Source: a virus. From it: a DNA stretch of 64,000 nucleotides. Shown here one piece after another: positions 13,946-57,560 of this stretch. Under the pieces are notes generated by a model. It was given only the letters and a program-made list of their open reading frames with translations. It searched no databases and had not been told where the DNA came from. The stretch lies in IMG/VR virus record IMGVR_UViG_3300021256_000098; one strand, 5' to 3'. Numbering within the stretch: position 1 is the first letter of the stretch; every line of letters begins with the position of its first letter. A program made the translations under genes and the position numbers.

Positions 13946-14907
13946 TGGGTAGAGCAAAACAAAGTAAACACATTAAGTTGTTCGATAAAGAAAAAGTTGC
14001 GAAGATTAACCCTGAGAGTAAAAGGCTATTAAGAGAATATAAAAAAGATATGGTGTTGCGTGAACTGTCTCCCGGAACAATCGAAGGTTATTTTGGTGAC
14101 TTATATCAGTGGTTGATTTTTGTATTAGAGAATCAAGAGAATAAGTCTGTTTTAGAAATAGACGAAGATGATCTGACAGATTTTTTCTATTGGTGTAAAA
14201 CCGAAGGAAACAATACACGCCGCATGAGACGTAGATATTCTAGCATTTCAGCGTTTTATAAATTTTTAAGGAAAAAGCGCAAGGTCACAGAGAACCCGAT
14301 GGAGTTTGTAGACCGACCAATTAAAGATGTCGATGTAATCACTCAGACATATTTAACAGTAGAGCAAATTGAAGAAATGAAAGAGAAATTAGCAGCGACG
14401 GGAAATCTCACACTTGAAGTGTATGCTTTATTCTCTTTGAGTACAATGGCTCGTGTCAATGCTGTGTCCAACATCAAGTGGAAACAGATTGATTTTGCGC
14501 AACGCATTGTTACGGACGTTTTAGAAAAAGAAGGAAAAATAGTAACCTTATATTTTTCTGAGGAAGTCCGGTTAAAACTTATTCGACTTCAACAGTTCCG
14601 CGAACTAAACGAGATCGACGATGGTGGTTATGTCTTTTTCAGCAGAGATAAAGATGGTCATCCTAAACCTGTATCGACTGGTACATTACATAGTTGGGCA
14701 AGGAAGATTGGTCGCATGATTGGGGTGCCTACGCTGCATCCGCATGACTTTAGGCACTCTGGTAGCCAGCAACTTAAACTTGCTGGTATGCCCTTAGAGG
14801 AAATATCGGTTTTATTAAATCATGAATCGACTGAAACTACCCGGAGACATTACCTACAAGCCGACACACAAAGTATACGAGCATCCAAAGATAAGTATGG
14901 CTTGTGA
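13945..14907 (+). CDS. int: tyrosine recombinase (phage integrase / Xer-like)
   Basis: C-terminal LHPHDFRHSGS...LNH...TTRRHY, with the catalytic R-H-R-Y pattern. Confidence 0.85.
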   Translation: MGRAKQSKHIKLFDKEKVAKINPESKRLLREYKKDMVLRELSPGTIEGYFGDLYQWLIFVLENQENKSVLEIDEDDLTDFFYWCKTEGNNTRRMRRRYSSISAFYKFLRKKRKVTENPMEFVDRPIKDVDVITQTYLTVEQIEEMKEKLAATGNLTLEVYALFSLSTMARVNAVSNIKWKQIDFAQRIVTDVLEKEGKIVTLYFSEEVRLKLIRLQQFRELNEIDDGGYVFFSRDKDGHPKPVSTGTLHSWARKIGRMIGVPTLHPHDFRHSGSQQLKLAGMPLEEISVLLNHESTETTRRHYLQADTQSIRASKDKYGL

Positions 14908-27240: not shown

Positions 27241-27525
27241 ATGACTACGCGCATCTGTAAAATTTGCGGGAAAAAATATAAAGTATGTCCCTCATGTGAA
27301 GAAGTGCGAACTTTTGCACCGTGGCGCACGCTAGTTTGTTCGGTCGAGCATTATCAAGTGTTTACAATATTGTCTGAGCATATTTGTACTAAAGATTCAA
27401 AACAGGCCGCGCAATCGCTGCATAGACTGCATCTCACTAAAGATGAGATGATAAAGTTTACGCCAGCGGTTCAGAAATCAATTACTGATATTTATGCGGC
27501 TGCTAAAAGCGAAGCGAAAAAGTGA
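27241..27525 (+). CDS. small zinc-ribbon protein (CKICG...CPSC)
   Basis: 94 aa. Paralogous to the next micro-ORF. Confidence 0.45.
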   Translation: MTTRICKICGKKYKVCPSCEEVRTFAPWRTLVCSVEHYQVFTILSEHICTKDSKQAAQSLHRLHLTKDEMIKFTPAVQKSITDIYAAAKSEAKK

Positions 27526-27714: not shown

Positions 27715-28170
27715 GTGAATTTGGTGCCATCGAAATTTAACGTGTCTTCTGATGTTAGCAAACGTACATATGATGGCATCGTATACGATTCAGCCGTCGA
27801 GATGAAGTTTATGCGGGATTATTTGAAACCCAAATTAGAATCAGGTGAATTGGTATCTGTTGAAAGACAAGTTAAGTATGTCTTACAACCCGCTTTCCGC
27901 CGTGAGGATAAATTAGTTAGAGCTATAAATTATGTCGCTGATTTTGTAATCACATACCAAGATGGTCATGTGTCAGTAATTGATATCAAGGGTATGGCAG
28001 ATGCAACAGCATTATTAAAACGTAAGTTGTTTTGGTATACGTTTCCAGATGTAGATTATCAATGGATTTCGTATTCTAAAACAGACGGCGGTTGGATATC
28101 TTACGATACTCTCATACAAAAGCGCAAAGAGCGCAGACTAGAACGAAAGAAAAGGATGGAACATAAATGA
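27715..28170 (+). CDS. PD-(D/E)xK nuclease-fold protein (DUF1064-like)
   Basis: YVADFVI...VIDIKG motif. The true start is probably TTG/GTG at 27721/27724. Confidence 0.5.
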   Translation: MNLVPSKFNVSSDVSKRTYDGIVYDSAVEMKFMRDYLKPKLESGELVSVERQVKYVLQPAFRREDKLVRAINYVADFVITYQDGHVSVIDIKGMADATALLKRKLFWYTFPDVDYQWISYSKTDGGWISYDTLIQKRKERRLERKKRMEHK

Positions 28171-29144: not shown

Positions 29145-31433
29145 ATGGATGATAAATTACAAGTCAAAGTAGGCGTTGCCCTAGACCCTGCAAGCAAGCA
29201 GAAAGTATTAAGTGAACTTAAAACTCTAAAACCTAAAAACAAAATTAAAGTTCTTGTTGACGCTGATACTAAACCTGCGTCAAAAAAAATTCAGAAACTC
29301 ATTAACAAATACGCCAAAAAGAAACTTACACTTAATGTTGATGCAAAAATTGGTGGAACGAATACTTCTAGGAGTTCGGCTGCTCTCAATAAGGTGCTTG
29401 TAGGACAAGCGCAACAAACAAAAAAGAAACTTGAAAAAACTTTTCAAGGGGTTAAATTTAATACATCATTCACTGATATTGGTGCAGAACGCAAACGCCT
29501 TGAACAAAAATTACAAGCAGCGGGTAAATCAGCCAAGGTTGGTGCCGGTTATAATGTCAAGAGAGACACTGATGGTAATATTACTCGTTTTGCTTTTGGT
29601 ATTAAAAATGTAGGCGCTGAAGCTGAGTCGTCTCAGAAATCGGTTGCAAAATTATTTTATACCCTTAAAGAAATAGACGGACAAAAGATGTTCGTTTTAG
29701 ACAGCAGTTCATTAGGTTCTCTCCCTACTTTTACGAAACAAATTGATAACTATGAACAAAAACTCAAAAACCTAAAAGCATTGTGGGGAAAGGAAGGAAC
29801 TCTTTCTTCTACTCTTCCAGGTGGGCTACAACAAACTGCTATTAGTGAGTTAAGTCAATTAGAAAGCATATTACAAAAGGTTCGTGGGCAAGCAGTTGTT
29901 ACGGGCGAAGATGTGGCGCGTGTTGGGGCTGCGTTTACGAGGTTTGATAAACAACCCGCTTTGTGGAAAAAACAGTTGACCCCAGATTCAAAATCACGGA
30001 TGTCATTAGAGCAGTACAATAAACAGATAGATACTCTCTATAACAAAATGCGTCGCTTTCAAGCAGATAATCCTAAAACAAAACAAATGAGTGGGTTTTC
30101 TGGCCTATTACAAGAATTAGGTCAATTAGATCGAAACAAGGTTGACGTCAATGGGTTAAATGACCTTAAAAGTAGATATGAAGGATTAGTTACTTCTGCT
30201 CACGAAATGGGCTTTGCTGGACAATCCGCTTTTAGTGCTTTAATAGGCAAAGCTAAAGAACTTGGTCTTTATTTAAGTACCAGTGTCATGTTTACCCATG
30301 TTATAGATGGGTTTAAGATGATGGTATCTAATGTAGTTGAATTAGATACTGCATTAACAGAACTTAAAAAGACTACGAATGGTTCACAACAGGATTATGC
30401 AAACTTCATTCAAGGAGCTGCAAATACCGCACAAGCTGTTGGTGCCAAAATCTCTGATGTTGTACAATCTGCGGCTGAATGGTCACGTTCTGGTTATGGA
30501 CTACAAGAATCAGGTGACTTAGCGAAGGCAGCCAACATGTACATGAATGTCTCGGAGTATGACAATATCACTGATGCAACCCAATCTATGATTTCTTCTA
30601 TGAAAGCATATGGTTATGAAGCATCGAATGTTATGACTCTGTTAGACAAGTTCAATGCTGTCGGCAATACTACTGCAACCAGTTCGAGCGGTTTAGGCGA
30701 TGCTTTACTGCGAAGCGCAAGCGCATTAGCAACAGCAGGAAATACTATTGACCAATCGTTAGGTTTGGTCGTAGCCGCCAACGAAACGGTGCAAAACCCG
30801 GAAAAAGTTGGTAACGGATTAAAGACTATTTCTTTGCGTATTCGCAATACGAAGGGTGAACTTGAAGAACTGGGCGAAGAATCCGATGGTGCAGTAGAGT
30901 CTATCACGAAACTGCAAACTCAATTGTTGAATCAAACCCATGGCAAGGTTAACATTTTTGATTCTAACGGACAATTTAGATCAACGTATGATATTTTAAC
31001 CGACCTTTCTCAAGCATGGGGTAGCTTAGATTCGGTTGAGCAAGCGAATATTACCACCATGCTTGCCGGTGCAACACAAGCCAATACATTGACTGCGATT
31101 ATGCAGAATATGTCTGTCGGCGCGAAAGCTGTAGAAACTTCGTTACATAGTCAAGGCTCTGCGGCAGAAGAAAATGCTCGTTGGATGGATTCTATTCAGG
31201 GCAGAATGCAGCAGCTCTCTGCAAGTTTCCAAGAATTATCTGCGACTGCGATCAACACTGATTTCGTCAAAGGTTTCATTAGCGGTGGACAATCTATCAT
31301 TGAAATCTTAAATCAAATCATTTCTACAGCCGGTGTACTTAAACCTTTATTAGCAGGGTTTGGCGTCGGCGCATTTATTAAGAACTTTGGTTGGCTCATA
31401 AAACATAGAGTCACGCTTATTCCTATTTCATAA
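29145..31433 (+). CDS. tail tape measure protein, N-terminal portion (contains a TP901-family TMP core-like region)
   Basis: Long coiled-coil Lys-rich N-terminus. The ...VVELDTALTELKKTT...GLGDALLRSASALATAG... region is typical of TMP cores. Ends in a hydrophobic segment. Confidence 0.65.
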   Translation: MDDKLQVKVGVALDPASKQKVLSELKTLKPKNKIKVLVDADTKPASKKIQKLINKYAKKKLTLNVDAKIGGTNTSRSSAALNKVLVGQAQQTKKKLEKTFQGVKFNTSFTDIGAERKRLEQKLQAAGKSAKVGAGYNVKRDTDGNITRFAFGIKNVGAEAESSQKSVAKLFYTLKEIDGQKMFVLDSSSLGSLPTFTKQIDNYEQKLKNLKALWGKEGTLSSTLPGGLQQTAISELSQLESILQKVRGQAVVTGEDVARVGAAFTRFDKQPALWKKQLTPDSKSRMSLEQYNKQIDTLYNKMRRFQADNPKTKQMSGFSGLLQELGQLDRNKVDVNGLNDLKSRYEGLVTSAHEMGFAGQSAFSALIGKAKELGLYLSTSVMFTHVIDGFKMMVSNVVELDTALTELKKTTNGSQQDYANFIQGAANTAQAVGAKISDVVQSAAEWSRSGYGLQESGDLAKAANMYMNVSEYDNITDATQSMISSMKAYGYEASNVMTLLDKFNAVGNTTATSSSGLGDALLRSASALATAGNTIDQSLGLVVAANETVQNPEKVGNGLKTISLRIRNTKGELEELGEESDGAVESITKLQTQLLNQTHGKVNIFDSNGQFRSTYDILTDLSQAWGSLDSVEQANITTMLAGATQANTLTAIMQNMSVGAKAVETSLHSQGSAAEENARWMDSIQGRMQQLSASFQELSATAINTDFVKGFISGGQSIIEILNQIISTAGVLKPLLAGFGVGAFIKNFGWLIKHRVTLIPIS

Positions 31434-31854
31434 GCGGCCTACTTTATAGTAAGGATGCAACGAATATGGTGTTGCTACAAGCTATATTAACATAGGGGTT
31501 CTAAAATACCTAGAGGAGTATTGGCGGTCTGCAATTCCGCTATGCTGGAACGGAAAGTGTTATATAACCAAAACGGAATCGGTGACGATAAACGGCAATG
31601 GTTTGAAAATATATAATGCAAGAAAATAACGATTTTATTTTCATGTCCCAATCAGCAGGACACGCTTCTGATATCATTTTATGATAGTGAAGGATATACT
31701 GGTAATACAGAGTAATCTTCTTAACAGAGTGCATCTTCATCGACTACCCATCCTCCCTGCTATTCAGACCTTATATGAATAACAGGTAAAGTATAGTCAA
31801 AAATGTGCCCATAATATTTGATGGATTGTTATGGGTTAATATAATTGCAAAATA

Positions 31855-31885
31855 AAGAAGCGACAAACTGCCGCTTCTTTTTTAA
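31855..31885. terminator. hairpin agaagcg-N9-cgcttct flanked by T/A runs (bidirectional terminator of the embedded minus-strand gene)
   Basis: 7-bp perfect stem followed by tttttt. Confidence 0.55.
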
Positions 31886-32581
31886 TTAAAAATCACTATT
31901 ACAATTATTGCAATGCCACTGTTTGCCAATCTTTGAACTAGCAAGTCCTGTCATACCGACAGATACAGCTCGTCCCCCTACCCCGATCTTTTTGCAATTA
32001 TGCGATCCGCAATATGGACAAGTGACGGTATGCTCTTGAACTGGAGGGTCGAATTGTTGCATTTCTATAGCATGACGCATTTCACGTTCCATAACTTCTT
32101 CCTCGTGTTGTTCGTCTACTATTTTACTTGCGTAAGAATCGAAGTCAGCCATGATTTCATTATATTTTTTAAGTTCATCCGTGTAAGATTGCCCCATAAA
32201 TAAAACCGGGAATGTTGTAATAAACCAAAAAATCAAAATAAATATTCCAAAAATCCACCAATCAAGGTCGTATGGATCTACAAAAGTCCAAATTGCCGCG
32301 CCAAGCAATGGTGATAATAGGATAGCATATTTGAATTTATCTAGTATTGTCCATTTAACTGGTTCTTTTGGTTTTGGGACTTGCTTGATAAGTTGTTCTC
32401 GTTTTTTCTCCCATTCCAAATCTTCTTGTCTGCATTGTTCTTCAAACCTCTTTTGCTTTTGCTCTTGTTCATCTTCAAGTTGTTTGCGATAGGTTTGAAT
32501 GTCGTATCCGCAATTCGGACAAATTAAAGCACTGCTTGATACGTCTTCTTTGCCACATTCCGGGCATTTAATTAGTGCCAT
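31886..32581 (-). CDS. zinc-ribbon (CPECG...CPNCG N-terminal, CPYCG...CNNC C-terminal) protein with two central TM helices, embedded antisense in the tape-measure locus
   Basis: 231 aa. Own RBS (ggaggga) and an extended -10 promoter-like sequence upstream on the minus strand. Confidence 0.6.
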   Translation of the reverse strand: MALIKCPECGKEDVSSSALICPNCGYDIQTYRKQLEDEQEQKQKRFEEQCRQEDLEWEKKREQLIKQVPKPKEPVKWTILDKFKYAILLSPLLGAAIWTFVDPYDLDWWIFGIFILIFWFITTFPVLFMGQSYTDELKKYNEIMADFDSYASKIVDEQHEEEVMEREMRHAIEMQQFDPPVQEHTVTCPYCGSHNCKKIGVGGRAVSVGMTGLASSKIGKQWHCNNCNSDF

Positions 32582-35500
32582 ATATCATCCCTCCTTACAA
32601 AAATTATATCACATTTTGCAGTTAAAAGAAATAGGAAATATTTTTAAGGCACTACAAAATGGTAAGAATTTTGGTGATATCAAAGATTCTTTAGATGGGC
32701 TGACGAAGTTCGGACGAGCAGTTACAGGAAAAGGATTAGCGCGGTTACATGCAAAAGGTGCTATTGATGATTCTACATGGAAGGCTGCGCGCAATAGATT
32801 AGGTTTAGACGCAAGCGATGCTGCTAATGCGGCTAGTTTAATAGACACTGTTTCTGGAAAAGTTAATTCTCTAAAAACTGCATTGTCTGGATTAAAACAA
32901 ATTGGCAGCAATGGGCTGTCCACAATCGCATCTGGATTACAGCAAATTATTTCAGCAGGAGAAGGTGCTACCAACATCTTCCAAGGCGTTTGGGCTATGC
33001 TAAAACAAGGTGGAACCATGTTTATGGGTTCGTCGTTGCCGATAGTTGCTATGATTGCTGCCGCGACGGTTGCACTAAAAAAAGCATACGACGCAGCGCA
33101 TGAATACGAAAACGCTCACCAAAAAGCTGTCGATTCACAATCTTCATATGATAGTACGATCAGCGAGATAGATACACTTAATTCTAAATTAGATACTACT
33201 AAGCAACGGCTGAATGAACTGCGGACTATGCGCAGCAACGGTACTATCAGTGTAACAGACAAAGCAGAGTTGGATCGGTTAGAACGTGAAAACACTGAAC
33301 TGGAAACTAGACAAAAGTTATTAGAAGGCGAAGCAAAACGACAACAGCGAACCGCTTCTATTGATGCTGTAGGCGCACTCAAAGCTAAAGAGCAGTCTCA
33401 GTACATGAAAGAACATGGGTATGAGACAGAAGAAGCAGTTAACTATACAGATAAAATTACTGCTGTTCGGCAAGACCTGCAATATCTCGATCAATTATAT
33501 CGTAACCGTTCTGATTTAGAACAGCGACTCATCTCCGCATATAATAGTGGAGACACAAAAACTCAAGATAATCTTAAAAGCCAACTCAACGACAATGAGG
33601 CAGAAATCGAAAAGTATCATGAAACTTTATCGAAGACTATGCCTGAGATCGAAAAGTATAGAGATACTTTACAACAGGATACGAATTTAGGTTCTATTGC
33701 AGGTGGAGAACAAGCCCTTACTGCTGCTTCTCAGTTAATGAATATGTGGCAAAATATTGGCACATCTCAAAGCGCAGCCGAAAAGACCTTATCTCAACTG
33801 AATACATTCTTTGATGGTAGTTCTAACAACACCGCCATCAAAGACCAGATTATTGAGATGATGGATGCAGCAACCCCCGCTTCTGATGCTTTACATATGC
33901 TGGGCTTATCTTTGCAAGATTTAGGCGTTGAAGCTACGCCTGAAAACCTTGCTGCTTTTAATAAGTATTTTGGTGAGTTAAAACAGCAAGCAGAGGATGC
34001 TGCGACTTCTGTCAAAACGCTTCAAGACGAAGTAGATGGCACTATGTCTGGCATTGCAACAGCGATGGAGTCTCAAAATGCTGGAGCAAACTACGAACAG
34101 CTTGACCAATATTTAACTAAAGCAAAATCTTTATATGATAGCGGATTAGTTGGTACTGATGATTTTAAGACTGTCGCTAAGATGATCTCTACAGGTGGCG
34201 CAGATATTGAAAAAGCTGTTCAAGATTTTTCTACTAACTACGCAAACCTTCAGAAATATTTTACTAAAGATAGTAGTGGCAATTTCACTCGCACCGGTAT
34301 TGACAAGTTTGTTTCTGACTTAGAAGCAACTGGGAAAACCTTCCATTCTACCGCAGAGGCCGCTGATGCACTCGGCATTTCAGCGGGAGCTTTTGAAGTT
34401 ATTTTAGGCAGATTAGGAGATTATGACATCAAAAAGTATGGGGACAATGCTTTTGATGGCATGGTCAAATCTGCGGCAGCTTTTGAACAGGCCAAAGAAA
34501 ATCTGTCACAATTACAGACTTTGTATGATAATATGGATGAGGGCGGTCGCAAAGACGCTCTTGGCGATAAATTATCTAATTGGGAATCTCAAATTGACAA
34601 AGCGCAAACCGATCTGGAATCATTAGATACGGACATTGTTTTGCAAATGAAATTAGAATATGATTTAGACTCTTTGCGAAACGAGATCGACGAAGCGCGT
34701 AGCGTGGCTCAAGCTGGTGGCGACGCTACAACTTGGGCTACTGCCATTAGCAAGCAACAGAAATATACTCAGGTTTCAGAACATGCCATGGGTATTGACC
34801 GTGAAGGCATTGAATTGCCTGTTAGTTATAAGATCGCAAAAGAATCATTTGCAGATTTACAAAGCCAGTTGAAAGAAGCTGTAGATAATGGCGATACTGA
34901 ACTAATTGCTAAATTGCAACCTCAAGTTGAAAATGCTGGCGAGTTAGTTAACAGTTTAGACGACGCAATTCGAGAAAGCAAACCCGAACTCTCCCCCACG
35001 CTGGACGTCAGCGAAGCTAATAAACAACTTAGTGACTGGGAAGCACAAAGTCGCAACACAAAGTTAGTCAAAGAGGCTTATATCAACTACATAACTGGTG
35101 GACAAGAAGCTCCCGAAGAAATGGATGCTTTGATGGATTATATCTTGGCACATCAAGATAATCCGGAAGATACGCAGGCAATGCTTGATTACATTAAAAG
35201 TCATCAAGACAACCCTGATGATATGCAAGCAATGCTTGATTACTTATTAAAGCATCAAGACGATCCAAACCCAATGAAAGCAGCATTGGATTACTGGAAA
35301 CGAACTCAAGAAGGAGCGACACAATCAAATACTAAGGTTAACTATAGACGAGGATCGCAGGAAGGCCCCGCACCAAAAACAGCTTTTGTACATTATATTG
35401 CATCGGGAGTTGCGGGTGCGGTTAGACGAGCTAAAGACTGGGTATCTCAACACGCACCTCACGCCCAAGGCACAGCTCATGCTTTTGGTTCTTGGGGTTT

Positions 35501-37844
35501 GCATAAAAACCAAACTTCTCTCATCAATGAGTTAGGCGAAGAAATCATTGTTCGTAATGGTAAATGGTTTACTCTCAATAATGGCTATCCTACTTTTGCA
35601 AAACTCCGGCGCGGTGACATAATTTTCAATCATAAACAAACAGAAGAATTGTTGAAGAATGGTTATGTCACCAATTCTCATGCTCGTATATTTGGTGCGG
35701 CTCGTGCAGCAGGAACAGTCAGCGGTACTGCATTTGCAACTGGAACGAAAAAATCTAAATCATCTAAGAATACATCTTCTGATAAAACAACAATTGATTG
35801 GCTTGAAATTCTGCTTGACCGCGCAGAACGTGCCGTTAAAAAACTGACTGATAAAGTTGGAAACACTTTTGCAAAGTACACATATCGTTTACAAGATGTT
35901 GCAAAAGCAATTACATCTACTCAGTCTGAAATCGCCAAACAACGCAAGGCGCAAGCTGCTTATCAGAAAAAAGCAAATGCTGTAAAACTTTCTGCTGGCT
36001 TAAAAAAGCAAGTGCGCGAAGGTGCATACTATATTTATGATTATGATGAGAAAACCCAAAAACTCATTAACGATTATAAAGAGTGGTATGAAAAGAGTTT
36101 AGACGCCAAGGATGCTATTGATGAATTAACTGAATCGTTAGGCGAGTTAGCGCAGAAGGCGTTTGACATTGTATCAAAAGAGTATGCGAATGAGTTTGAT
36201 ACATTAGAAAACCATGGAAAGTTGATTAGTGGCGCGGCAGACCTTGCAGAAGCAAGAGGGTACTTTGTTAATAGCGGCACGTATACCGATCTTATTGGTA
36301 TGGAACAACGCAAACGCGATAAAGGCATTAAACAATACAATGACTTAAAAGCACAACTTGATAAAGCTGTAAAATCCGGCGCGGTCGCAAAATTTTCCGA
36401 AGAATGGTGGGCGATGTCGAACGAGGTTCGTGAAGCCTCTATTGCAATTCAAGAGTGCGATGTAAGCATTGCAGAGTTCCAGCAAAAGATCAATGAGTTG
36501 AACTGGGAGAAGTTTGATTATCTGCAAGATACAATTAGTAAAGTAATTGACGAATCTAATTTCTTAATTGATTTATTGGAAGATTCGGATTTATTTACTG
36601 ATTCGGGTCAGCCTACATCTGAAGGCTGGGCAACGATTGGATTGCACAGTTCTAACATTAAAGTGTATCAAGATCAAGTTAAGCAATACGCCAAAGCTAT
36701 TCAAGATGTAGACAAACAACTCGCCAACGATCCGTATAATAAAGAACTGATTTCTCGCAGAACTGACTTATACGAAGCGCAACAAAAAGCTATTCTAGCA
36801 GCCAAAGATGAAAAGAAGGCTATTTCTGATTTAATCGAAGATGGTATTGATAAGCAAGTCGATCATATTAAAACTCTGATTGATACTTATACAGATGCTT
36901 TAGATGAAGCAAAGAGTTTATATGATTATCAGCGGAAGGTCACTGACCATACCAAAGAAATTGCTGCTATTCGTAAACAAATTGCGGCTTATAGCGGCGA
37001 TGAATCTGATGAATCCAAAGCACGTATTCAGAAATTACAAGTTGACTTAGAAAATGCAGAGAACGATCTTAAAGATACTGAGTATGATAAATATGTATCT
37101 GACACGAAGAAATTATTAGACAATTTCTATACACAGTACAAAGAAGATATGGAACGCCGTGCCGAACATTCTGATTCGTTGGTAGATGAATTGATTGGAC
37201 AAGTAGACAGTCATTCCACAGAAATCAATGATGTTATTCGGACTACAGCAAAAGATGTTGGTTATACGTTATCTTCTTCTATGAGCACACTAATCAGTGA
37301 CACAAATGGTGGATTAACAAATATTACATCTATGTTGCAAACCATTAGTGACTACATAAAAGAGATGGCTGATGTTGCGGGTAAAACAGAGTTAAATAAA
37401 AACGGAGATCCTGTTGTGAACAGCAATGGCGAAGTTCAGTATGTAAAACCCAAAAAATGGGTATCTCGAACCAGTATCACGACAGGAGATCCTTCTAAGA
37501 GAGTAATTTCTGCTGACAGTAATGGCGCATCTATGCTCTCAACGATGAGTAATTTGCGTCCTATAACTCATCGTACCATTGGCGTTAAACCAACAATGTA
37601 CCGCAATGGCAATAGTTTATTAAGTATGCCTGCCGTCGGATATGACACTAATAGCACAGGTGGCAATATCAATATCGCGGCAACAGCTAATGTAAGTATC
37701 GACCATGTATCTGACTACAATGATTTTGTAACGCAGTTACAGCACGACAAACAATTTGAATCTATGATTCAGTCCATGTCTGTTGATCGTCTTGTCGGCA
37801 AAACGTCTTTAGCCAAGAATAAATATAATTGGAGAAATAATTAG
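32499..37844 (+). CDS. tail tape measure protein, C-terminal portion (1781-aa ORF; the real start is probably at or after 32582, and is uncertain)
   Basis: Begins with a hydrophobic segment, then has >1000 aa of coiled-coil and a C-terminal globular region. Contiguous with part 1 except for the ~1.07-kb insert. Confidence 0.6.
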   Translation: MSYPQFGQIKALLDTSSLPHSGHLISAIYHPSLQKLYHILQLKEIGNIFKALQNGKNFGDIKDSLDGLTKFGRAVTGKGLARLHAKGAIDDSTWKAARNRLGLDASDAANAASLIDTVSGKVNSLKTALSGLKQIGSNGLSTIASGLQQIISAGEGATNIFQGVWAMLKQGGTMFMGSSLPIVAMIAAATVALKKAYDAAHEYENAHQKAVDSQSSYDSTISEIDTLNSKLDTTKQRLNELRTMRSNGTISVTDKAELDRLERENTELETRQKLLEGEAKRQQRTASIDAVGALKAKEQSQYMKEHGYETEEAVNYTDKITAVRQDLQYLDQLYRNRSDLEQRLISAYNSGDTKTQDNLKSQLNDNEAEIEKYHETLSKTMPEIEKYRDTLQQDTNLGSIAGGEQALTAASQLMNMWQNIGTSQSAAEKTLSQLNTFFDGSSNNTAIKDQIIEMMDAATPASDALHMLGLSLQDLGVEATPENLAAFNKYFGELKQQAEDAATSVKTLQDEVDGTMSGIATAMESQNAGANYEQLDQYLTKAKSLYDSGLVGTDDFKTVAKMISTGGADIEKAVQDFSTNYANLQKYFTKDSSGNFTRTGIDKFVSDLEATGKTFHSTAEAADALGISAGAFEVILGRLGDYDIKKYGDNAFDGMVKSAAAFEQAKENLSQLQTLYDNMDEGGRKDALGDKLSNWESQIDKAQTDLESLDTDIVLQMKLEYDLDSLRNEIDEARSVAQAGGDATTWATAISKQQKYTQVSEHAMGIDREGIELPVSYKIAKESFADLQSQLKEAVDNGDTELIAKLQPQVENAGELVNSLDDAIRESKPELSPTLDVSEANKQLSDWEAQSRNTKLVKEAYINYITGGQEAPEEMDALMDYILAHQDNPEDTQAMLDYIKSHQDNPDDMQAMLDYLLKHQDDPNPMKAALDYWKRTQEGATQSNTKVNYRRGSQEGPAPKTAFVHYIASGVAGAVRRAKDWVSQHAPHAQGTAHAFGSWGLHKNQTSLINELGEEIIVRNGKWFTLNNGYPTFAKLRRGDIIFNHKQTEELLKNGYVTNSHARIFGAARAAGTVSGTAFATGTKKSKSSKNTSSDKTTIDWLEILLDRAERAVKKLTDKVGNTFAKYTYRLQDVAKAITSTQSEIAKQRKAQAAYQKKANAVKLSAGLKKQVREGAYYIYDYDEKTQKLINDYKEWYEKSLDAKDAIDELTESLGELAQKAFDIVSKEYANEFDTLENHGKLISGAADLAEARGYFVNSGTYTDLIGMEQRKRDKGIKQYNDLKAQLDKAVKSGAVAKFSEEWWAMSNEVREASIAIQECDVSIAEFQQKINELNWEKFDYLQDTISKVIDESNFLIDLLEDSDLFTDSGQPTSEGWATIGLHSSNIKVYQDQVKQYAKAIQDVDKQLANDPYNKELISRRTDLYEAQQKAILAAKDEKKAISDLIEDGIDKQVDHIKTLIDTYTDALDEAKSLYDYQRKVTDHTKEIAAIRKQIAAYSGDESDESKARIQKLQVDLENAENDLKDTEYDKYVSDTKKLLDNFYTQYKEDMERRAEHSDSLVDELIGQVDSHSTEINDVIRTTAKDVGYTLSSSMSTLISDTNGGLTNITSMLQTISDYIKEMADVAGKTELNKNGDPVVNSNGEVQYVKPKKWVSRTSITTGDPSKRVISADSNGASMLSTMSNLRPITHRTIGVKPTMYRNGNSLLSMPAVGYDTNSTGGNINIAATANVSIDHVSDYNDFVTQLQHDKQFESMIQSMSVDRLVGKTSLAKNKYNWRNN

Positions 37845-39507: not shown

Positions 39508-42500
39508 ATGGATATAAAGATTAAATTCGACGACGAATGTATGCCACAGACTCCTACATTTGTACTTGCTACACGCAGCGGAGAGTATATTGGCGCGGTG
39601 CCTGCTGTTAATATTACGTGTAAAAACCCATGGAATGCTAATGCTGATTTAATGTTTCGAGTCTATAAATATGATAATGACGTAGAGTATCAATACTGGC
39701 ATGAATTAAAAGACTTTAGATTGGTTTGGTGTAGAGAATGGAATGCGTGGTTTGAGATTTCAGTAGAGTTAGAAGAAGCTCCTCATATATCAAAAATTAT
39801 TACTTGTACTTCTTTAGCAGAAGCAGAATTGGGACAAATCATGTTATATGAGACTGAAATCAATACTGAGGATGATATTGCTCGTTCTGATTATATACCG
39901 ACAGTGTTATATCAACCAGACAAACCGCGAGGTTCTTTATTAACGCGCATACTCAAAAAGGCTCCAAACTATATCATTGAACATGTAGATGACAGCATTA
40001 AAAATATCCAACGAACTTTTTCATTTCACGATGTGAGTATTTACGATGCTTTTCAAACTATTACAGAAGAAATAGATTGTATTGCGATCTTTCGCGCTTA
40101 TACTACAGATACAGGGGAAATTAAACGCTCTATATCTGTATATGATTTAGAAAATTCTTGTTCTGCATGTGGTGAACGAGGAACTTTTGAAGATATATGT
40201 CCAAAATGTGGCAGCACAAATATAACACCCGGATACGGAGAAGACACTACTGTTTTTGTTTCAGTAGATAATTTAGCTGATAATATTAACTACACTACGG
40301 ATGTAGGTTCTGTTAAGAATTGTTTCCGGTTAGAAGCTGGGGACGATTTAATGACTGCGGCGATTGTGGCTTGTAACCCGAATGGAACACAATATTTGTG
40401 GCATTTTTCGGACGATATGAAAAGCGATATGTCGCAAGCATTAGTAAAAAAAATCAACAACTATGACCAACTTTATCAATCATACCTCACCACCCACGAG
40501 ATTAGTATTGAAAACACTAAGTTATTGCAACAATATAACCAGATTGTTACGAAATATAATAATTTACATTCACAAAATTTTTCAACCATTGAATCGCCTT
40601 TGCATGGTTTTTCAGAACTAATGCGTGCGTACTACAATGTCATAGATTTTGATTTGTATTTATCCCACGGTATGATGCCATCCCCTCCCCCCGCTCCTGA
40701 TTCGGCTACCGAGCAAGCAACATTGTTAGAGACGGAGCATATGCCTGCTGTAGCTGTATTATCTATACCAAAGTGTACAGTTTCTACAGCATCAAGTGCG
40801 GTGCAGGCTATGGCTCGTGTAGTTGTAGACCCTCACTTCCAAGTTCGCGTCGGAGACAGTGCATTGAGTGATATAACAACAGAAGCATCTGGGGAGCAAT
40901 ATCGGCAATGGACAGGCACGTTTGTTATTACGAATTATGATGATGATACTGATACGGCTACAACTAATAGTATTTCTATTAGAATCACAAACGAATATAT
41001 AAGCTATGTTCAGCAACGTATGCAGTCTCTTTTGGATCGACACAGTGAAGACGCTTCAGATATTGTTACTTTATTTCAGTTACCCATTGCTAACTTTAAG
41101 CAAGAATTAAAAAAGTATGGACAAGCATCTTTGCAAATATTTTATGATGCTTGTCAGTCTTGTATGGATGTTTTAATTCAGCAACAGGCGTATGCTGATT
41201 ACACAGATGTAGCAACAAGTTATTATAACAATTATTATGAACGATTATCTGCTTTATCTGATGAATTAGCCGTGAGAGCATCGGAGATTGCTGTTGTGTC
41301 TGGACAACAGGTTGGAGTGGTTGCGGGGCATAGTATGTTAGAAATCTTACAGGCTAAACGCACCAAAATTCAAGCAGCACTAGATTTTGAAACTTATTTA
41401 GGTGAAAATTTATGGTTAGAATTTTCGTTATATAGACGAGAATGCTCGTTCTCGAACAGCAACTATATTTCTGATGGCTTAGATAATTTTCAGTTATTTC
41501 AACGCGCACAAGAGTTTTTTGATAAAGCATCCCAAGAGATTTATAAATCAGCCAATTTGCAACACTCTATTACCGCTACTCTAAAAAATTTGTTAGCTAT
41601 GGAAGAATTCAAACCTTTAGTTCAACATTTTCAGTGTGGTAATTGGATTCGTATTCGAGTCGATGACAATGTTTATCGTTTGCGTTTAATAAGTTATGAC
41701 ATAGATTTTGATGATTTAACACATATAACAGTTGAATTTTCAGATGTAAAGCAAGTTTCTAATGGTGTAACTGACGCAGAAAGTATTTTTGCACAAGCCA
41801 AACAAATGGCAACCTCTTACACTGCAACACAGAGACAGGCCAGTAAAGGCAATAAGAGCAGCCGACAAGTGCAAAATTGGGTAGACGATGGTTTATCATT
41901 AACTACCATGAAGATTGTGAATGATGCTAGTAATCAAGATATTGTTTATTCTGATAGTGGCATTACGTTACGCGAAAAAATCCCGTTCACCGACGAATAT
42001 GATCCGCGCCAAATTAAATTGATAAATCAAGGGTTGTATGTCACGAATGATAATTGGCAAACGTCCAGCGCAGGGGTTGGACACTTTTATTATTATGATC
42101 CTGCTACTGGAAACATCGTTGATGATTATGGTGTTATAGCAAATACTATTGTCGGTAACTTATTATTAGGTAAGAATTTAGGTATTTATAATTCAGACGG
42201 CAGTGTAACAGTTAATGAGAATGGATTGACTTTAACAACAAATACTGATGATGACCAATCGCAAAAAAATATCTTCACCATACAAAAAGAAACGGATAAT
42301 CAGGATGGCACAAAAACAACCATTCCCCTCTTATACATTGATGACGACGGAAACCTTGTCTTAAACGGTTCGATGAAAATTGTATCTGATATTGAAGGAG
42401 TTACTACACGTACCTTTGACGATGTCGCTGCGGATGTAGACGAGATCAAATCGCAAGACAGATATCGTGTTGAAACGGTTGTATCTGGTGTCAACATTTT

Positions 42501-42726
42501 TAATTCAAGAAACCAGAGCAGTCGCATGGAATGTCATGTGTATTCGTGGGATAAAGATATCACTGATACTATAAATGCTTCGTGCTTTGCGTGGCATCGT
42601 CATTCTGCGAACCCAAACTCAGACGCGACATGGGATGCCGCTCATAAAGGCATGAAATATATTGTTGTATCAACAGAAGATGTGTTTCAGAATGCGTCGT
42701 TTACGTGCGAGGTTACGTTAGAATAA
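39508..42726 (+). CDS. tail-associated lysin / baseplate hub (Tal)-like protein (1072 aa)
   Basis: Position after Dit. Large multi-domain protein. Confidence 0.45.
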   Translation: MDIKIKFDDECMPQTPTFVLATRSGEYIGAVPAVNITCKNPWNANADLMFRVYKYDNDVEYQYWHELKDFRLVWCREWNAWFEISVELEEAPHISKIITCTSLAEAELGQIMLYETEINTEDDIARSDYIPTVLYQPDKPRGSLLTRILKKAPNYIIEHVDDSIKNIQRTFSFHDVSIYDAFQTITEEIDCIAIFRAYTTDTGEIKRSISVYDLENSCSACGERGTFEDICPKCGSTNITPGYGEDTTVFVSVDNLADNINYTTDVGSVKNCFRLEAGDDLMTAAIVACNPNGTQYLWHFSDDMKSDMSQALVKKINNYDQLYQSYLTTHEISIENTKLLQQYNQIVTKYNNLHSQNFSTIESPLHGFSELMRAYYNVIDFDLYLSHGMMPSPPPAPDSATEQATLLETEHMPAVAVLSIPKCTVSTASSAVQAMARVVVDPHFQVRVGDSALSDITTEASGEQYRQWTGTFVITNYDDDTDTATTNSISIRITNEYISYVQQRMQSLLDRHSEDASDIVTLFQLPIANFKQELKKYGQASLQIFYDACQSCMDVLIQQQAYADYTDVATSYYNNYYERLSALSDELAVRASEIAVVSGQQVGVVAGHSMLEILQAKRTKIQAALDFETYLGENLWLEFSLYRRECSFSNSNYISDGLDNFQLFQRAQEFFDKASQEIYKSANLQHSITATLKNLLAMEEFKPLVQHFQCGNWIRIRVDDNVYRLRLISYDIDFDDLTHITVEFSDVKQVSNGVTDAESIFAQAKQMATSYTATQRQASKGNKSSRQVQNWVDDGLSLTTMKIVNDASNQDIVYSDSGITLREKIPFTDEYDPRQIKLINQGLYVTNDNWQTSSAGVGHFYYYDPATGNIVDDYGVIANTIVGNLLLGKNLGIYNSDGSVTVNENGLTLTTNTDDDQSQKNIFTIQKETDNQDGTKTTIPLLYIDDDGNLVLNGSMKIVSDIEGVTTRTFDDVAADVDEIKSQDRYRVETVVSGVNIFNSRNQSSRMECHVYSWDKDITDTINASCFAWHRHSANPNSDATWDAAHKGMKYIVVSTEDVFQNASFTCEVTLE

Positions 42727-42869
42727 TTGAGTCAATTACCCACCCACTAAAGTGAGTGGGCTTGTAACTCCCCAGTAGTGCGAACGTCTTGTGACTCCTA
42801 CCTTTGGCTTATCTGATTACTCAGATAGTGGGGTTACATCGCAGGGTGATTGACTGCACCCTTATCATC

Positions 42870-44030
42870 TCAGACGTGCTGAGATGATACTGTATCCGGT
42901 ACTTGACTATCCTTTGCAAGATAGTTGATTCCCATGCGATACAGATTCATTGCTCCGATACGGTCATCATTGGACGTGTAACCGCAAGATTTACAGCAGA
43001 AGATATGCTTATTTTTATCACGGTTAGACTTTTCCGTGTGACCGCAAACAGGACAGGTCTGGCTCGTATAACGAGGGTCTACGTTAATTACTAGACTCTC
43101 GTTGAGCGCAGCCTTATACTTTAACTTCTTCTCCAGGTCGTAAAACGACCAAGATACGGTAACATAACGGTCTTTGCGACGCACCTTCTCTGTGGCAGAA
43201 CGAACGCCGGACAGGTCCTCTAAGACAAAGAGCGTGTGCTTCGGGTTAGACTCAACGAGTGCCTTTGATACACAATGGTTTACATCCTGCATCCAACGGT
43301 TTTCTCGCTGACCGATAGCTTTTAGCCTTCGTCTTGCAGAAGGAGTCTGTCTTTGCTGAAGTTCCTTGCGGAGCTGTTTGTACTTAGCACGTTTTTGCTT
43401 AATATTCCTGCCGCTTACAAAGCCGGACTTATGTTTGCTGTCATAGGTTGCAACGACAAAGTTAATACCCCTGTCTACGCCGACAACATTACAAACGTCG
43501 CAATCCAAGGCTTCAAGGATATCTCTGGTAACTGGGATATGCAGAAAATACTTGCCATGCTTTTTCACAAGTTTGGCAGTGCCAAAGGAGTAGATATCGT
43601 GGTCAAAGTATTTCTCCATGCCACCAGAATAGTATGGCAGCTTCACACGACCGCTAAGTGTATTTACAGAGAACAAGTTCTGCGTAAGAGAATAGTCTCT
43701 ATTCCACACAAGGTCGTATTGAGGATTAGAAAAATCTGGCTTAATCCATTCATGTTGGTTTTCTAAGATGGTTTTGTATCTTGCAATAACCGTCTTAAAA
43801 ACAGATTGTGCCATCTGGGATTTTAAGCCATAGCGCTTACGGAGATCATAATACAATGCCTTATTAAGCGAAAACTGCTTCAGGTCATGCGTCTGGAAGA
43901 TGTAATTTGCCACAAAGTTACACGCACTGCGATAGGTGTCCATAGTAACATCCAACAGCTCACGCTGTTCGGGTGCAACTCGGACCTGAATCTTTGCAGT
44001 AGTAGTGATTTGCATCAGTAACATCTCCAT
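42870..44030 (-). CDS. tnpB: TnpB (OrfB) RuvC-like RNA-guided nuclease of an IS200/IS605 element
   Basis: GVDRG, VLEDL and C-terminal CPVCGH...CCKSCG zinc-finger motifs. 386 aa. Confidence 0.9.
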   Translation of the reverse strand: MEMLLMQITTTAKIQVRVAPEQRELLDVTMDTYRSACNFVANYIFQTHDLKQFSLNKALYYDLRKRYGLKSQMAQSVFKTVIARYKTILENQHEWIKPDFSNPQYDLVWNRDYSLTQNLFSVNTLSGRVKLPYYSGGMEKYFDHDIYSFGTAKLVKKHGKYFLHIPVTRDILEALDCDVCNVVGVDRGINFVVATYDSKHKSGFVSGRNIKQKRAKYKQLRKELQQRQTPSARRRLKAIGQRENRWMQDVNHCVSKALVESNPKHTLFVLEDLSGVRSATEKVRRKDRYVTVSWSFYDLEKKLKYKAALNESLVINVDPRYTSQTCPVCGHTEKSNRDKNKHIFCCKSCGYTSNDDRIGAMNLYRMGINYLAKDSQVPDTVSSQHV

Positions 44031-44098
44031 TCATTGTATTTCACTATAAATTATTATAGCATGGATTTAGTGAATACACAATAGGAGGAACTAAATTT

Positions 44099-44503
44099 AT
44101 GCAAAACCGCTATAATCGCAGAAATAGACGCAAATACAATCTTAAAGTGCATATCGTACTTGTGACCAAGTATAGGAAAGCGTTGTTGCAGAATGGTATC
44201 GACGACTTCGTAAAACGTGCTATAAGCTATCTCGCAGACCAAAACGACTGGACAATTATCGTTATGGAAACGGACAAGGATCACGTTCACATACTTCTGG
44301 AATATGACGCAACAGAACGCATCTGTGACATCATCAGCATCATCAAACAGAGAACAACACATTGGCTCTGGACACGCTACAGAAATATATTAAATAAGCA
44401 ATACTGGGAAAAACACATCTTCTGGTCAGACGGATACTTTGCCTGTAGTATTGGAGAAGTATCATCTGCAACCATTGAAAAGTATATAGCCGAACAAGGC
44501 TAA
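44099..44503 (+). CDS. tnpA: IS200-type Y1 (HUH) transposase TnpA
   Basis: HVHILL HUH motif and a C-terminal Tyr region. 134 aa. Confidence 0.85.
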   Translation: MQNRYNRRNRRKYNLKVHIVLVTKYRKALLQNGIDDFVKRAISYLADQNDWTIIVMETDKDHVHILLEYDATERICDIISIIKQRTTHWLWTRYRNILNKQYWEKHIFWSDGYFACSIGEVSSATIEKYIAEQG

Positions 44504-44583
44504 GAAAGGAGAAAGCGGCTCCTCCCACCTGCTAAAGCAAGTGGGTTTCCGCCGCTAAATGATTTTATGAAAGGATTATATAA

Positions 44584-46398
44584 ATGGCTATTTTAACCAG
44601 TTCTCCGCAGACATTTATTGATATTACCGATCAACGTAAATTATCTGCGTATATAACTGCTAATTTGCCGAAAGTACAAACGGAAGACCCGAATGTGTTA
44701 CCGCATGAATACGAGCCGGATTGGACAACGACAAAACTTAAATTAACGCCCGTAGTGTTCCTCGACCAAACTGAAATTGGTCTTAAAGAAACCGGCTTAA
44801 CTATCTCATGGAAACGTAAAGATGGTTCTGGCGCGGAAACATCATTAGTGTCCGGCGAATCTGTCAGTAATGGTATTTTGACAATTTCTAAAAATGTACT
44901 ACCTACTTCAAGTAGTGGCATGATTACTTATCTTTGTCATATTAGTTTTTACGACAGTGAAACGCAAAGCACTGTAAAGATTACATCTGATTTGACTTTT
45001 ACTCTTGTCAAAAACGCATCTAATGCAAGATTAGCTTATGTGACTGCTGACACTTATGTATTCAAATATAATACAAATTCGACTTTAGTTGGAGCAAAAC
45101 AGGCTACTCTGAGCGGACAAGTACAAGGTGTGCAAATTTCTAAATGGCAATATAAAAATAGTTCAGGTAATTGGGTGGATTATCCGACCACTTCTGATAA
45201 CGATAATATCACAAGTGATACTCTAATCGTGAAACCAACTCATGCAGTATTTGTGAGCAATGTTGCTCAAATTAAATTAGTAACGGATGATGCAGATGTT
45301 TTTGATACTATTAGCATTACAAAGTTATATGATGGAGCGCAAGGCAGCGGTGGCGTAGGAGGTTTATCTGTAGTTCTCGGAAACGAAGCACAGACTATTG
45401 CGTGCACGAAGGATGGCTTAGTTGAATCTGCTTTTAACATTGAAATACCTTTTTCTGCTTATCAAGGTACAACTCAGATTGCATGTTCATGTACGGTTGG
45501 TACTTTGCCTTCTGGTATAACAATTAAAACCAATACTGCGGCTACAGCAAGTGCCGCAGGTAAATTGATTCTAGCGGTAGAAGCCAATGGGACATTAGGT
45601 GGTAAGAATGTCGTAAATGGTTCTATTACTCTTACTTTTGCTGTTTCTGATAAATCTGTCGTTAAGAATTTTACATGGTCTAAATCAACGAAAGGCGCAA
45701 CGGGAGAACCGGGTGCGGCCGGTAAAAACGCGGTCGTTTTCTCTGTTTATGCTCCTAATGGAACAATCGTTCAGAATCAATCTGGTTCTATTACATTGGC
45801 GACTGCTGCATACGACGGCGGCGATGAAATTACGTCCGACGCGACATACCAATGGGCGAAATATGTAAGTGGCAAATGGACAAATATCAGTGGCGCAACG
45901 TCCGCTACATTAAGTGTGTCTGGCAGCGATATTGTTAATATTCAATCGTATCGTTGTACCATGACATATTCTGGGACTACTTATAAAGACATTATTACAG
46001 TAGAAGATAAGTCTGACCCGTATGTATCTGAAATGTTGAGTATTGGTGGTTTTACAGTCAAAAACGGACAAGGTGGATTAGTGCCGTATGTCATTGTTCG
46101 TACAAACCAAAAAGAGGTAGATGCTCTTAAAGGTATTATAAGTACAACAGCACCAAGTAATCCAACAACTGGAACATTTTGGTACGCTATAGATCACAGT
46201 GCTAAAACTGTGACATTAAAAAAATATTCTGGTTCAGCGTGGAAAAACGCAACAGAAAAACAGTCTTTAACTTATACATGGTACAAACAAGATAAAAATG
46301 GCAATGCAGTTACCTTCAATAAGACCGGTAAAGTAATTTATTTATCAGCCGATGATATAGATGTGTTGGCAACTTTGCAATGCGACGTGACACAGTGA
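44584..46398 (+). CDS. tail fibre / receptor-binding structural protein (604 aa, Ser/Thr-rich beta-rich repeats)
   Basis: Position in the tail module; composition. Confidence 0.45.
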   Translation: MAILTSSPQTFIDITDQRKLSAYITANLPKVQTEDPNVLPHEYEPDWTTTKLKLTPVVFLDQTEIGLKETGLTISWKRKDGSGAETSLVSGESVSNGILTISKNVLPTSSSGMITYLCHISFYDSETQSTVKITSDLTFTLVKNASNARLAYVTADTYVFKYNTNSTLVGAKQATLSGQVQGVQISKWQYKNSSGNWVDYPTTSDNDNITSDTLIVKPTHAVFVSNVAQIKLVTDDADVFDTISITKLYDGAQGSGGVGGLSVVLGNEAQTIACTKDGLVESAFNIEIPFSAYQGTTQIACSCTVGTLPSGITIKTNTAATASAAGKLILAVEANGTLGGKNVVNGSITLTFAVSDKSVVKNFTWSKSTKGATGEPGAAGKNAVVFSVYAPNGTIVQNQSGSITLATAAYDGGDEITSDATYQWAKYVSGKWTNISGATSATLSVSGSDIVNIQSYRCTMTYSGTTYKDIITVEDKSDPYVSEMLSIGGFTVKNGQGGLVPYVIVRTNQKEVDALKGIISTTAPSNPTTGTFWYAIDHSAKTVTLKKYSGSAWKNATEKQSLTYTWYKQDKNGNAVTFNKTGKVIYLSADDIDVLATLQCDVTQ

Positions 46399-57413: not shown

Positions 57414-57560
57414 ATGAAGACTATTACAGTTCGCATTGATGATGAGTTGCATGAACAACTCGTCGCATGTGCAGCCAAAGAACATCGTTCCATTAGTAAT
57501 CTGATTAAAACTATCATCTTAGATTACATGGATAGGGAGGGGCAGAAGAATGAAGGCTAA
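57414..57560 (+). CDS. ribbon-helix-helix (CopG/Arc-like) protein, 48 aa, not in the ORF track; likely par operon regulator
   Basis: ITVRIDDELHEQLVACAAKEHRSISNLIKTII is a classic RHH. Overlaps the parA start. Confidence 0.55.
   Translation: MKTITVRIDDELHEQLVACAAKEHRSISNLIKTIILDYMDREGQKNEG

Follow-up and report, generated by a model that had tools for sequence, protein, structure and literature searches.

Group I introns are documented in phage genes for capsid, tail, terminase, lysin and polymerase proteins, gut phages included (PMC3706429, PMC8541194, PMC6507118, PMC12880540). Examples are td, nrdB and nrdD of T4, the polymerase gene of SPO1, capsid and tail genes of Cluster J mycobacteriophages, the terminase and polymerase genes of phage KASIA, and genes of gut jumbo phages (PMC3706429, PMC8541194, PMC12880540, PMC2988022). 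The subject here is the tape-measure gene in IMG/VR virus record IMGVR_UViG_3300021256_000098, the analysed 64,000-nucleotide stretch of which is called the window throughout. With a probability of about 85%, this is a single gene with a group I self-splicing intron at 31392-32618, inside which a minus-strand gene for a zinc-ribbon protein (the cargo) is housed. As in known phage introns, an essential late gene is interrupted at a conserved codon, relatives carry intron-less alleles, and the reading frame meets a stop codon shortly past the 5' splice site. Known phage introns, however, are either free of open reading frames or carry a homing endonuclease gene on the sense strand, whereas here the sole gene is antisense, has a predicted promoter and terminator of its own and no nuclease domain, and the Rfam model misses the intron. 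No description of an intron at this tape-measure site was found in the literature searched, and the searchable literature likewise gave no account of a phage group I intron whose gene is antisense, has a promoter of its own and encodes no endonuclease. The intron itself is a further case of the documented phage group I introns; the arrangement of its cargo is unusual.

Comparable layouts are known from several other systems. In T4 nrdD (sunY), the core comes first and the coding cargo, I-TevII, lies downstream of it and before the 3' splice site. IStrons also place the core first, with tnpA/tnpB of the IS200/605 group as downstream cargo (PMC10690162). The intron in the window resembles sunY and the IStrons in its compact 5' core and in the long insert looped out between P9 and the 3' splice site, but differs from them in having no transposase or endonuclease. 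The tnpA/tnpB genes of IStrons stand in sense orientation, and the transposase that marks such elements was not found in 31392-32618, the TnpB gene of the window lying outside at 42870-44030. Group I introns with antisense homing endonuclease genes occur in nuclear ribosomal DNA (PMC9548176, PMC3679873). The likeness lies in a gene that is placed opposite the ribozyme strand and expressed from its own signals; those introns, however, are eukaryotic, reside in rRNA genes and carry a His-Cys homing endonuclease. Organellar group I introns can house ordinary genes, as in the giant ND5-717 intron of corallimorpharians (PMC6545197). What is common to that intron and the present one is that they house genes with no part in splicing or mobility, although ND5-717 is mitochondrial and the gene found here is an exchangeable accessory gene. 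The genes hosted by ND5-717 are core respiratory genes on the sense strand. Finally, the cargo is like phage morons, or lysogenic-conversion genes, in its small size, its predicted promoter and terminator, its variation between relatives and its homologues beside cI-like repressors, but classical morons lie between genes and not in an intron inside an essential gene.

The analysis covered ribozyme structure and covariation, splice-site positions, exon colinearity, the expression signals of the cargo and the cargo family. Two plus-strand reading frames of the same phase make up the tape-measure locus. The first, Part 1 (29145-31433, 762 amino acids), is present as the sequence-only reading had described it; it matches the Pfam domain PhageMin_Tail at residues 430-642 (84 bits), and its C-terminal half is about 28-35% identical in tblastn to proteins annotated as tape measures in large siphoviruses of Bacillus, Brevibacillus and Enterocloster. 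The second, Part 2, is open over 32499-37844. When 31391 is joined to 32619, a protein of 2,490 amino acids with a single terminal stop is obtained, which reads ...AFIKNFG/QLKEIGNIFK... (the slash marks the junction here and below). The domain, the matches to annotated tape measures and the length after ligation all identify the product as a tape measure. The earlier proposal of one tape measure of about 2500 residues agrees with this product. The uninterrupted relative L022 reads ...GFVKNFG/KLKELGF..., and its protein aligns with the ligated product without any insertion or deletion. At the DNA level, the ligated exons GCATTTATTAAGAACTTTGGT/CAGTTAAAAGAAATAGGA match GGGTTTGTCAAAAATTTCGGC/AAATTAAAAGAATTAGGA of L022, and the L022 segment GTCAAAAATTTCGGC/AAATTAAAAGAATTAGGA aligns with them base for base.

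Homology with uninterrupted tape measures stops at the end of exon 1 (31391). The insert, previously estimated at about 1.07 kb, actually spans 1,227 nt. The final 13 codons of Part 1 (WLIKHRVTLIPIS, before the stop) are intron sequence and fall, together with the stop codon, in hairpins P1a and P1b. Likewise, codons 1-40 of the Part 2 frame (32499-32618) are intron sequence antisense to the cargo gene and not tape-measure coding. In-frame ATG, GTG or TTG codons are absent from the first 88 codons of exon 2, which agrees with the earlier remark that Part 2 has no convincing start at the junction. A 12-nt repeat encoding KNFG, AAGAAYTTTGGT, had been suspected to be a duplication scar. The repeat itself is real (at 31380 and 32664, two copies against 0.08 expected), but it does not mark the junction: the second copy lies 46 nt into exon 2, amid K-x-[FI]-G motifs (KNFG, KEIG, KNFG, TKFG), and is missing in L028. 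From its sequence context, we read it as a local peptide repeat and not as a scar. Splice sites within the repeat were ruled out, as the U and G rules cannot be satisfied there in frame, and they are also contradicted by L028, L030 and L016, with ...GGT/TGG and ...TTTTG/CAG. An intron-less allele built on this wrong junction was sought in viral contigs and not found. A near-identity DNA search of the phage collection with the region gave no match, hence no near relative among deposited phages, and a protein search using the start of Part 2 gave none either.

Relatives of the phage supply both forms of the gene. Among 23 related viral contigs compared at the tape-measure locus, 17 have a frame that runs through the junction, over 1,855-3,734 codons (several run off the fetched locus). 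Five stop and resume past an insert, namely L004, L016, L021 and L023, together with L026, where the site is a different one; L004 is a near-identical copy of the window's own sequence. In a large protein collection, nearly all close homologues of the spliced query span only its Part 1 half (480-980 amino acids). Most Part 1 homologues in the databases end 0-25 residues past the motif K-[NSG]-[FLVI]-[GDA], and their sources label them 'TP901 family tape measure' or 'minor tail protein'. The recurrent C termini and the resumed frames therefore mark this codon as a recurrent interruption point for which uninterrupted alleles exist. Two separate tape-measure-like genes without an insert had been named by the sequence-only reading as evidence to the contrary; the opposite was found, that is, one uninterrupted gene of 2,600-3,700 amino acids or a gene split at this very codon by an intron. 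Right after Part 1, the insert of the window has a block of about 440 nt in common with those of L028 and L030, whose Part 1 proteins are 73% and 60% identical, respectively. Scanning of metagenomes and genomes with a 19-mer from the core gave mostly chance matches, the true members being L041, L043-L045 and a Bariatricus prophage, and an exact 30-mer of the core was found among viral contigs only in the window's own contig.

The placement of the intron is based on a covariation test, a minimum-free-energy fold, a mini-core covariance model and exon colinearity. The P, Q, R and S elements are UGCUGGAA, AAUCAGCAG, UUCAUCGACUA and AAAGUAUAGUC, and near-identical strings occur in the Rfam group I consensus; UGCUGGAA forms the 5' strand of P4, and UUCAUCGACUA and AAAGUAUAGUC form the 5' and 3' strands of P7. 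For the covariation test, the structure was drawn on the window and projected onto a plain MAFFT alignment of seven homologous copies; as controls, all 3' partners were slid by 1-3 columns and 500 shuffles were made. Standard pairs are formed in 84.4% of the cells, compared with 34-43% in the slid controls, and both sides change in 44 pairs, compared with 10-15. The observed values were reached by none of the 500 shuffles on four of five measures and by a single one on the fifth. Compensatory changes occur in P2, P2a, P2.1, P3.1, P5, P5a, P6b, P6c and P8; scores are poor for P1b, P5d, P6, P6a and P9, where MAFFT visibly misaligns hairpins of variable length. Moreover, an energy-only ViennaRNA fold of 31380-31850 independently yields the long-range P3 as well as P4, P5, P5a-d, P6, P8 and P9. 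The mini-core covariance model, for which the minimal core of the window family was used, matches the inserts that two other lineages have at the same site, namely that of L016 with 36 bits (E = 2e-7) and that of L021 with 31 bits (E = 1e-6).

Both splice sites can be placed by group I rules. The U·G pair of P1 is unchanged in all seven copies, and the pair adjoining it covaries (AU in four, GC in two, CG in one). The exon triplet and its partner read GGU/GCC in both the window and L030; L028 has GCU/GGC, whereas L016, L041 and the Bariatricus copies have GAU/GUC. The exon-pairing triplet lies just upstream of a conserved CUACUU. The 5' splice site was set after U31391 because U·G is constant and the middle pair occurs in three Watson-Crick forms. 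Hairpin P1a was considered as P1 and ruled out, since its covariation is that of a hairpin inside the intron and it has no U·G to offer. At the other end, an 8-bp P9.0 immediately precedes the terminal G32618, with everything from P9 to the 3' end looped out. P9.0 followed by the terminal G is also present, with compensatory changes, in L028 (AAAGTGT with ACACTTT, then G), in a Bariatricus copy (AAGTGTG with CACACTT, then G/CAACTTAAAGATATCGGT) and in L030 (ATATT with AATGT, then G). A 3' splice site 3 nt further downstream in L030 was ruled out by this P9.0 rule.

A mechanism can be proposed from these elements, whose coordinates are collected in Table 1. The late transcript would span both exons and the intron between them, and the core would fold at the 5' end of the intron. 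P7 would bind an exogenous guanosine, to which P1 would offer U31391 in its U·G wobble, and P9.0 would loop out the cargo segment of about 770 nt and bring G32618 to the active site. Ligation of the exons would give an mRNA for a single tape measure of 2,490 amino acids. The cargo, from a large accessory family found mostly beside cI-like repressors, would have taken up residence in the intron. It should be expressible without late transcription because its own extended -10 promoter, Shine-Dalgarno (SD) sequence and terminator lie on the opposite strand.

Table 1. Coordinates of the tape-measure exons, the group I intron and the cargo gene in the window
Feature	Position	Strand	Remarks
Tape-measure exon 1	29145..31391	+	749 codons; ends ...GCA TTT ATT AAG AAC TTT GGT (AFIKNFG); PhageMin_Tail
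Group I intron	31392..32618	+	1,227 nt; core at 5' end, antisense cargo in 3' part, last base G (omega-G)
Ribozyme core	31392..31835	+	P1-P9; P3/P7 pseudoknot; P4-P6 and P3-P8 domains
P1	31389-91 with 31437-39	+	Last exon bases GGU with GCC; 3-5 bp
P1a	31392-97 with 31408-13	+
P1b	31414-20 with 31430-36	+
P2	31445-49 with 31482-86	+
P2a	31457-61 with 31471-75	+
P2.1	31493-96 with 31509-12	+
P3	31513-17 with 31751-55	+
P3.1	31523-27 with 31537-41	+
P4	31543-48 with 31652-57	+
P5	31552-54 with 31646-48	+
P5a-d	31559-31642	+
P6	31664-70 with 31725-32	+	P6a-c also in the drawn structure
P7	31742-46 with 31794-98	+
P8	31757-66 with 31776-85	+
P9.0 5' strand	31800..31807	+	AAAATGTG; directly after P7; pairs with 32610-32617
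P9	31808-35	+
Terminator hairpin	31854..31880	both	G+C-rich, T-runs on both strands; intrinsic terminator of cargo gene
Cargo gene	31886..32581	-	231 amino acids; between P9 (end 31835) and P9.0 (start 32610)
Cargo SD	32589-32596	-	AAGGAGGG; 7 nt before ATG
Cargo extended -10	32603-32611	-	TGATATAAT; within last 16 nt of intron
P9.0 3' strand and terminal G32618	32610..32618	+	CACATTTT; 3' splice site between 32618 and 32619
Tape-measure exon 2	32619..37844	+	1,741 codons and stop; starts CAG TTA AAA GAA ATA GGA (QLKEIG)

The cargo gene was already described in the sequence-only reading, and its frame with a ribbon at either end is confirmed by eight cysteines (C6, C9, C21, C24, C188, C191, C224 and C227) that are invariant across 33 homologues. 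It is the sole open reading frame of the intron with coding support, and its large, well-conserved family counts more than 667 homologues at full-length coverage. The N terminus matches Pfam Zn_ribbon_3. It is followed by a charged helix, one or two hydrophobic helices, a second charged helix and the C-terminal ribbon, which carries a Gly/Ala/Ser-rich insert (CPYCGS...KIG...GLASSKIGKQWHCNNCNSDF). Two transmembrane helices had been claimed; one segment (about residues 106-132) is strongly hydrophobic, and the one before it is weaker. Similarly, the ribosome-binding site, extended -10 and terminator that had been noted are all present, but the predicted promoter lies at the very end of the intron and not in Part 2. 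The TG of its extended -10 is the complement of the first two bases of the P9.0 3' strand, and the two elements overlap. The same layout of SD and -10 is found in L016, L021, L023, L028 and L030; a simple two-hexamer promoter scan did not call the cargo promoter. On the minus strand, the terminator hairpin has a folding energy of -15.8 kcal/mol (z = -4.0), and the weak Rfam matches in the region all fall on it (31854-31880). As judged by sequence, the predicted cargo transcript (about 32596 to about 31850) would be complementary to the looped-out segment only and not to the ribozyme core.

A number of points weigh against a working intron of this kind. Rfam RF00028 (Intron_gpI) gave no match, either in the whole window at the gathering score or in two sub-windows at E ≤ 10, and the same search did detect a different intron, in L021. 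This single model misses many subgroups as well as introns with large peripheral insertions. The mini-core model, for its part, matches neither that Rfam-positive L021 intron nor the inserts of L023, L032, L034 and L035. P3, P4 and P7 are invariant in the set, and are thus supported by position and consensus, beyond the reach of covariation. P1 is unusual in its shortness (3-5 bp) and in the two hairpins that it encloses, and no convincing P10 was found. On the plus strand, the cargo hairpin (-10.8 kcal/mol) is followed by TTTTTT (31854-31885) and could halt or attenuate tape-measure transcription before exon 2; late transcription must read through it because the cargo terminator is also terminator-like on the tape-measure strand. 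ATG 33018, with AAGGTGG 4 nt upstream, is the only start in exon 2 with an SD-like sequence and could conceivably serve as an independent one. Homing endonucleases (LAGLIDADG, GIY-YIG, HNH, His-Cys), which could have explained the spread of the intron, are absent. With the AlphaFold2 model of the cargo protein (predicted local distance difference test score 87.5), a PDB fold search gave no match, and the protein has no PADLOC defence family and no NCBIfam name. Splicing itself we infer from sequence features.

Some of these points, namely the ribozyme unrecognised by Rfam, the hairpin with its T-run, which could end the tape-measure transcript, and the SD-like sequence ahead of ATG 33018, would also suit a dead intron or a plain moron insertion, with the tape measure made as two polypeptides: Part 1, with an intron-encoded tail and closed by a proper stop codon, and an internally started Part 2. 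Such an outcome is very improbable, as compensatory changes keep the helices across phages whose Part 1 is only about 45-73% identical, and both splice sites obey group I rules and restore exact colinearity. Moreover, a Part 2 translated on its own would find no start for 88 codons past the junction, and the start at 33018 would lose 133 conserved residues. Of the two possibilities raised earlier, a moron survives only as intron cargo, an independently promoted antisense gene, and not as an insertion that split the tape measure into two polypeptides. For the other, a self-splicing or bypass element, the self-splicing part is favoured by the covariation-supported ribozyme and the frame-restoring splice sites, but bypass is unsupported.

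The junction could in principle be an assembly artefact or chimera, or the insert could be excised from the DNA or passed over by the ribosome (bypass, an IStron-like transposon). Several contigs indeed end early, L004 inside the cargo (window 31956) and L027 and L029 just after the core, and a TnpB gene is present elsewhere in the window. Nevertheless, explanations of this type are almost certainly wrong: the Part 1-intron junction and the cargo gene are common to independent assemblies (L004/L031; P0001, P0080), the same architecture is found in more than 10 independent contigs and one isolate genome, no transposase or recombinase is encoded in the insert, and 1.2 kb far exceeds any known translational bypass. 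The contig breaks fit better with repeated intron cores and variable cargo that confuse assemblers. The differences between L004 and the window lie mainly in the terminator and cargo-end region (31853-31940).

Given a spliced tape measure, the role of the cargo has to be considered separately. Three of the four homologues examined in context (P0092, P0084 and P0166) are free-standing, co-oriented with their neighbours and near genes for cI-like helix-turn-helix repressors; the fourth and closest, P0081, is an antisense cargo within an insert at the same tape-measure codon. With regard to a possible moron nature, putative expression signals are present by sequence and fold, and the cargo differs between the window, L028 and L030 despite homologous cores. 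We infer that the cargo may have a lysogeny-expressed accessory (moron) function, for example in membrane-level exclusion or defence; no other part of the interpretation is as weak.

Alternatively, the zinc-ribbon protein may serve the intron, in DNA recognition and mobility or as a splicing or regulatory factor. This would explain why C-terminal ribbon modules recur across lineages: the module CPxC..N..KI....G....C.NC...[FW] is common to the window, L016, L028, L030, L032, L035 and Bariatricus despite differing cores, it has weak PHROG and Pfam matches to HNH and IS1595-type ribbons, and the intron has no homing endonuclease of its own. Such a service role is unlikely, however, given that the cargo protein has no nuclease domain in Pfam, PHROGs or NCBIfam, that unrelated cargo occupies the same site in L023, L034, L028 (with an added Hol_Tox) and L061, and that full-length homologues are mostly free-standing with no intron nearby.

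A wider look at the tape-measure site reveals a consistent pattern. Antisense cargo is present in all inserts examined, those of the window, L016, L021, L023, L028, L030, L032, L034, L035, L061 and the Bariatricus copies, and wherever the sequence was read, the cargo promoter and SD abut the 3' splice site. No homing endonuclease gene was found among these inserts. The cargo types include zinc-ribbon proteins of 93-231 amino acids with a common C-terminal module, a 108-residue membrane protein with a zinc ribbon in L021, a membrane protein without a ribbon in L023 and a peptide of 62 amino acids in L034. L028 additionally encodes, at about 8160-8265 on the minus strand, a hydrophobic peptide of 33 amino acids (MSYVTYSDLYQLLSTLFLFGSLIVAIITSCKKK; Hol_Tox at 24.2 bits against a cut-off of 23.3), which by its sequence is a predicted holin-like, type I toxin-type product. 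The cargo of L061 extends over about 5.8 kb, where the homologue closest to the window's cargo is joined by GmrSD_N, an ANT antirepressor and two DUF2513 genes. In L059/L061, the insert stands at the codon ...SFKNVG/, between a Part 1 of 859 and a Part 2 of 1,858 amino acids. This Part 2 and the left-hand cargo recur in L060/L062, after which come bacterial genes (Flg_new, pseudouridine synthase, histidine kinase); the insert thus seems to contain an attachment site or the end of a prophage.

The site appears to harbour three or more ribozyme lineages, because the mini-core model reaches the inserts of L016 and L021 but not those of L023, L032, L034 and L035; for the L023/L035 and L032 lineages, group I nature is read only from visible R/S-like motifs. 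A speculative and on the whole rather doubtful extension is that this tape-measure codon is a dedicated safe harbour, at which several group I lineages act as exchangeable carriers of antisense accessory cassettes. The cassettes would be zinc-ribbon membrane proteins, a Hol_Tox-type toxin and sets of up to about 5.8 kb with GmrSD_N, DUF2513 and ANT, and they would be swapped by way of homology arms formed by the conserved ribozyme core and exon 2. Furthermore, cargo transcription and tape-measure splicing could be mutually exclusive, because the cassette promoter borders on the P9.0 strand and the 3' splice site and overlaps them in part. If true, lysogeny-phase expression of the cargo would be tied to a block on tail production.

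The Bariatricus massiliensis AT12 genome (L052 and L048; NZ_LT574838.1, 208001-224000) contains four intron cores within about 7.5 kb. Each is followed by an antisense zinc-ribbon gene, and one core lacks its 5' part and stands in tandem behind another. A tape-measure-like N-terminal exon of 223-233 amino acids (MDKNNLSVQASLDTS...) is present three times. These repeats could reflect a decaying prophage, misassembly or alternative exons.

Further intron sites were observed in the tape measures of this phage group, at 12222-12509 in L021 and 6447-6800 in L026. The former is a canonical, Rfam-positive group I intron (79.5 bits) at another site, near the 3' end of the gene, with UGCUGGAA, AAUCAGCAG, UUCAACGACUA and AAGAUAUAGUC as its P, Q, R and S elements; the latter is an insert of about 350 nt without an open reading frame inside the PhageMin_Tail domain. 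Many database proteins (P0047, P0056-P0077) end at ...SLGLIVAA or ...LKTISLR. In the tail module directly before the tape measure, L032, L033 and L035 carry a tyrosine-integrase gene, of which the window has no counterpart there; in L003 (Brevibacillus phage Sundance), such a gene lies one gene further upstream, and L033 has an extra GIY-YIG/NUMOD3 endonuclease gene just before its integrase gene.

Upstream of its tape measure, the window encodes a 94-residue CxxC...CxxC protein (27241-27525) and a DUF1064-like protein (27715-28170), the DUF1064 gene being syntenic in L027-L030. The TnpB-type gene at 42870-44030 (minus strand, 386 amino acids; Pfam OrfB_IS605 and Cas12f1-like TNB) has flanks at 42727-42869 and 44031-44583, lies antisense between two large tail-region reading frames (39508-42726 and 44584-46398), and is probably an IS605-family insertion. 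The window also encodes a YonO-like single-chain RNA polymerase (PF05183; 9911-12367), a tyrosine-recombinase family protein (13945-14907), a Rep3-type replication initiator (55142-56695, minus strand) and a ParA/ParB pair (57550-59336), which together suggest a temperate phage-plasmid related to SPbeta.

As regards annotation, tape measures of these SPbeta-related gut phages are routinely called as two genes; recognition of the intron gives the true protein of 2,490 amino acids and hence the expected tail length. In terms of detection, a group I lineage missed by the standard Rfam model implies that surveys of introns in gut viromes probably undercount them. With a self-splicing intron in an essential gene, the phage would gain a further gene under separate control without any cost to the gene that hosts it. 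The presence of antisense, non-endonuclease cargo in all introns examined at this site suggests selection on the arrangement, and also suggests a route by which accessory or defence genes may spread between phages.

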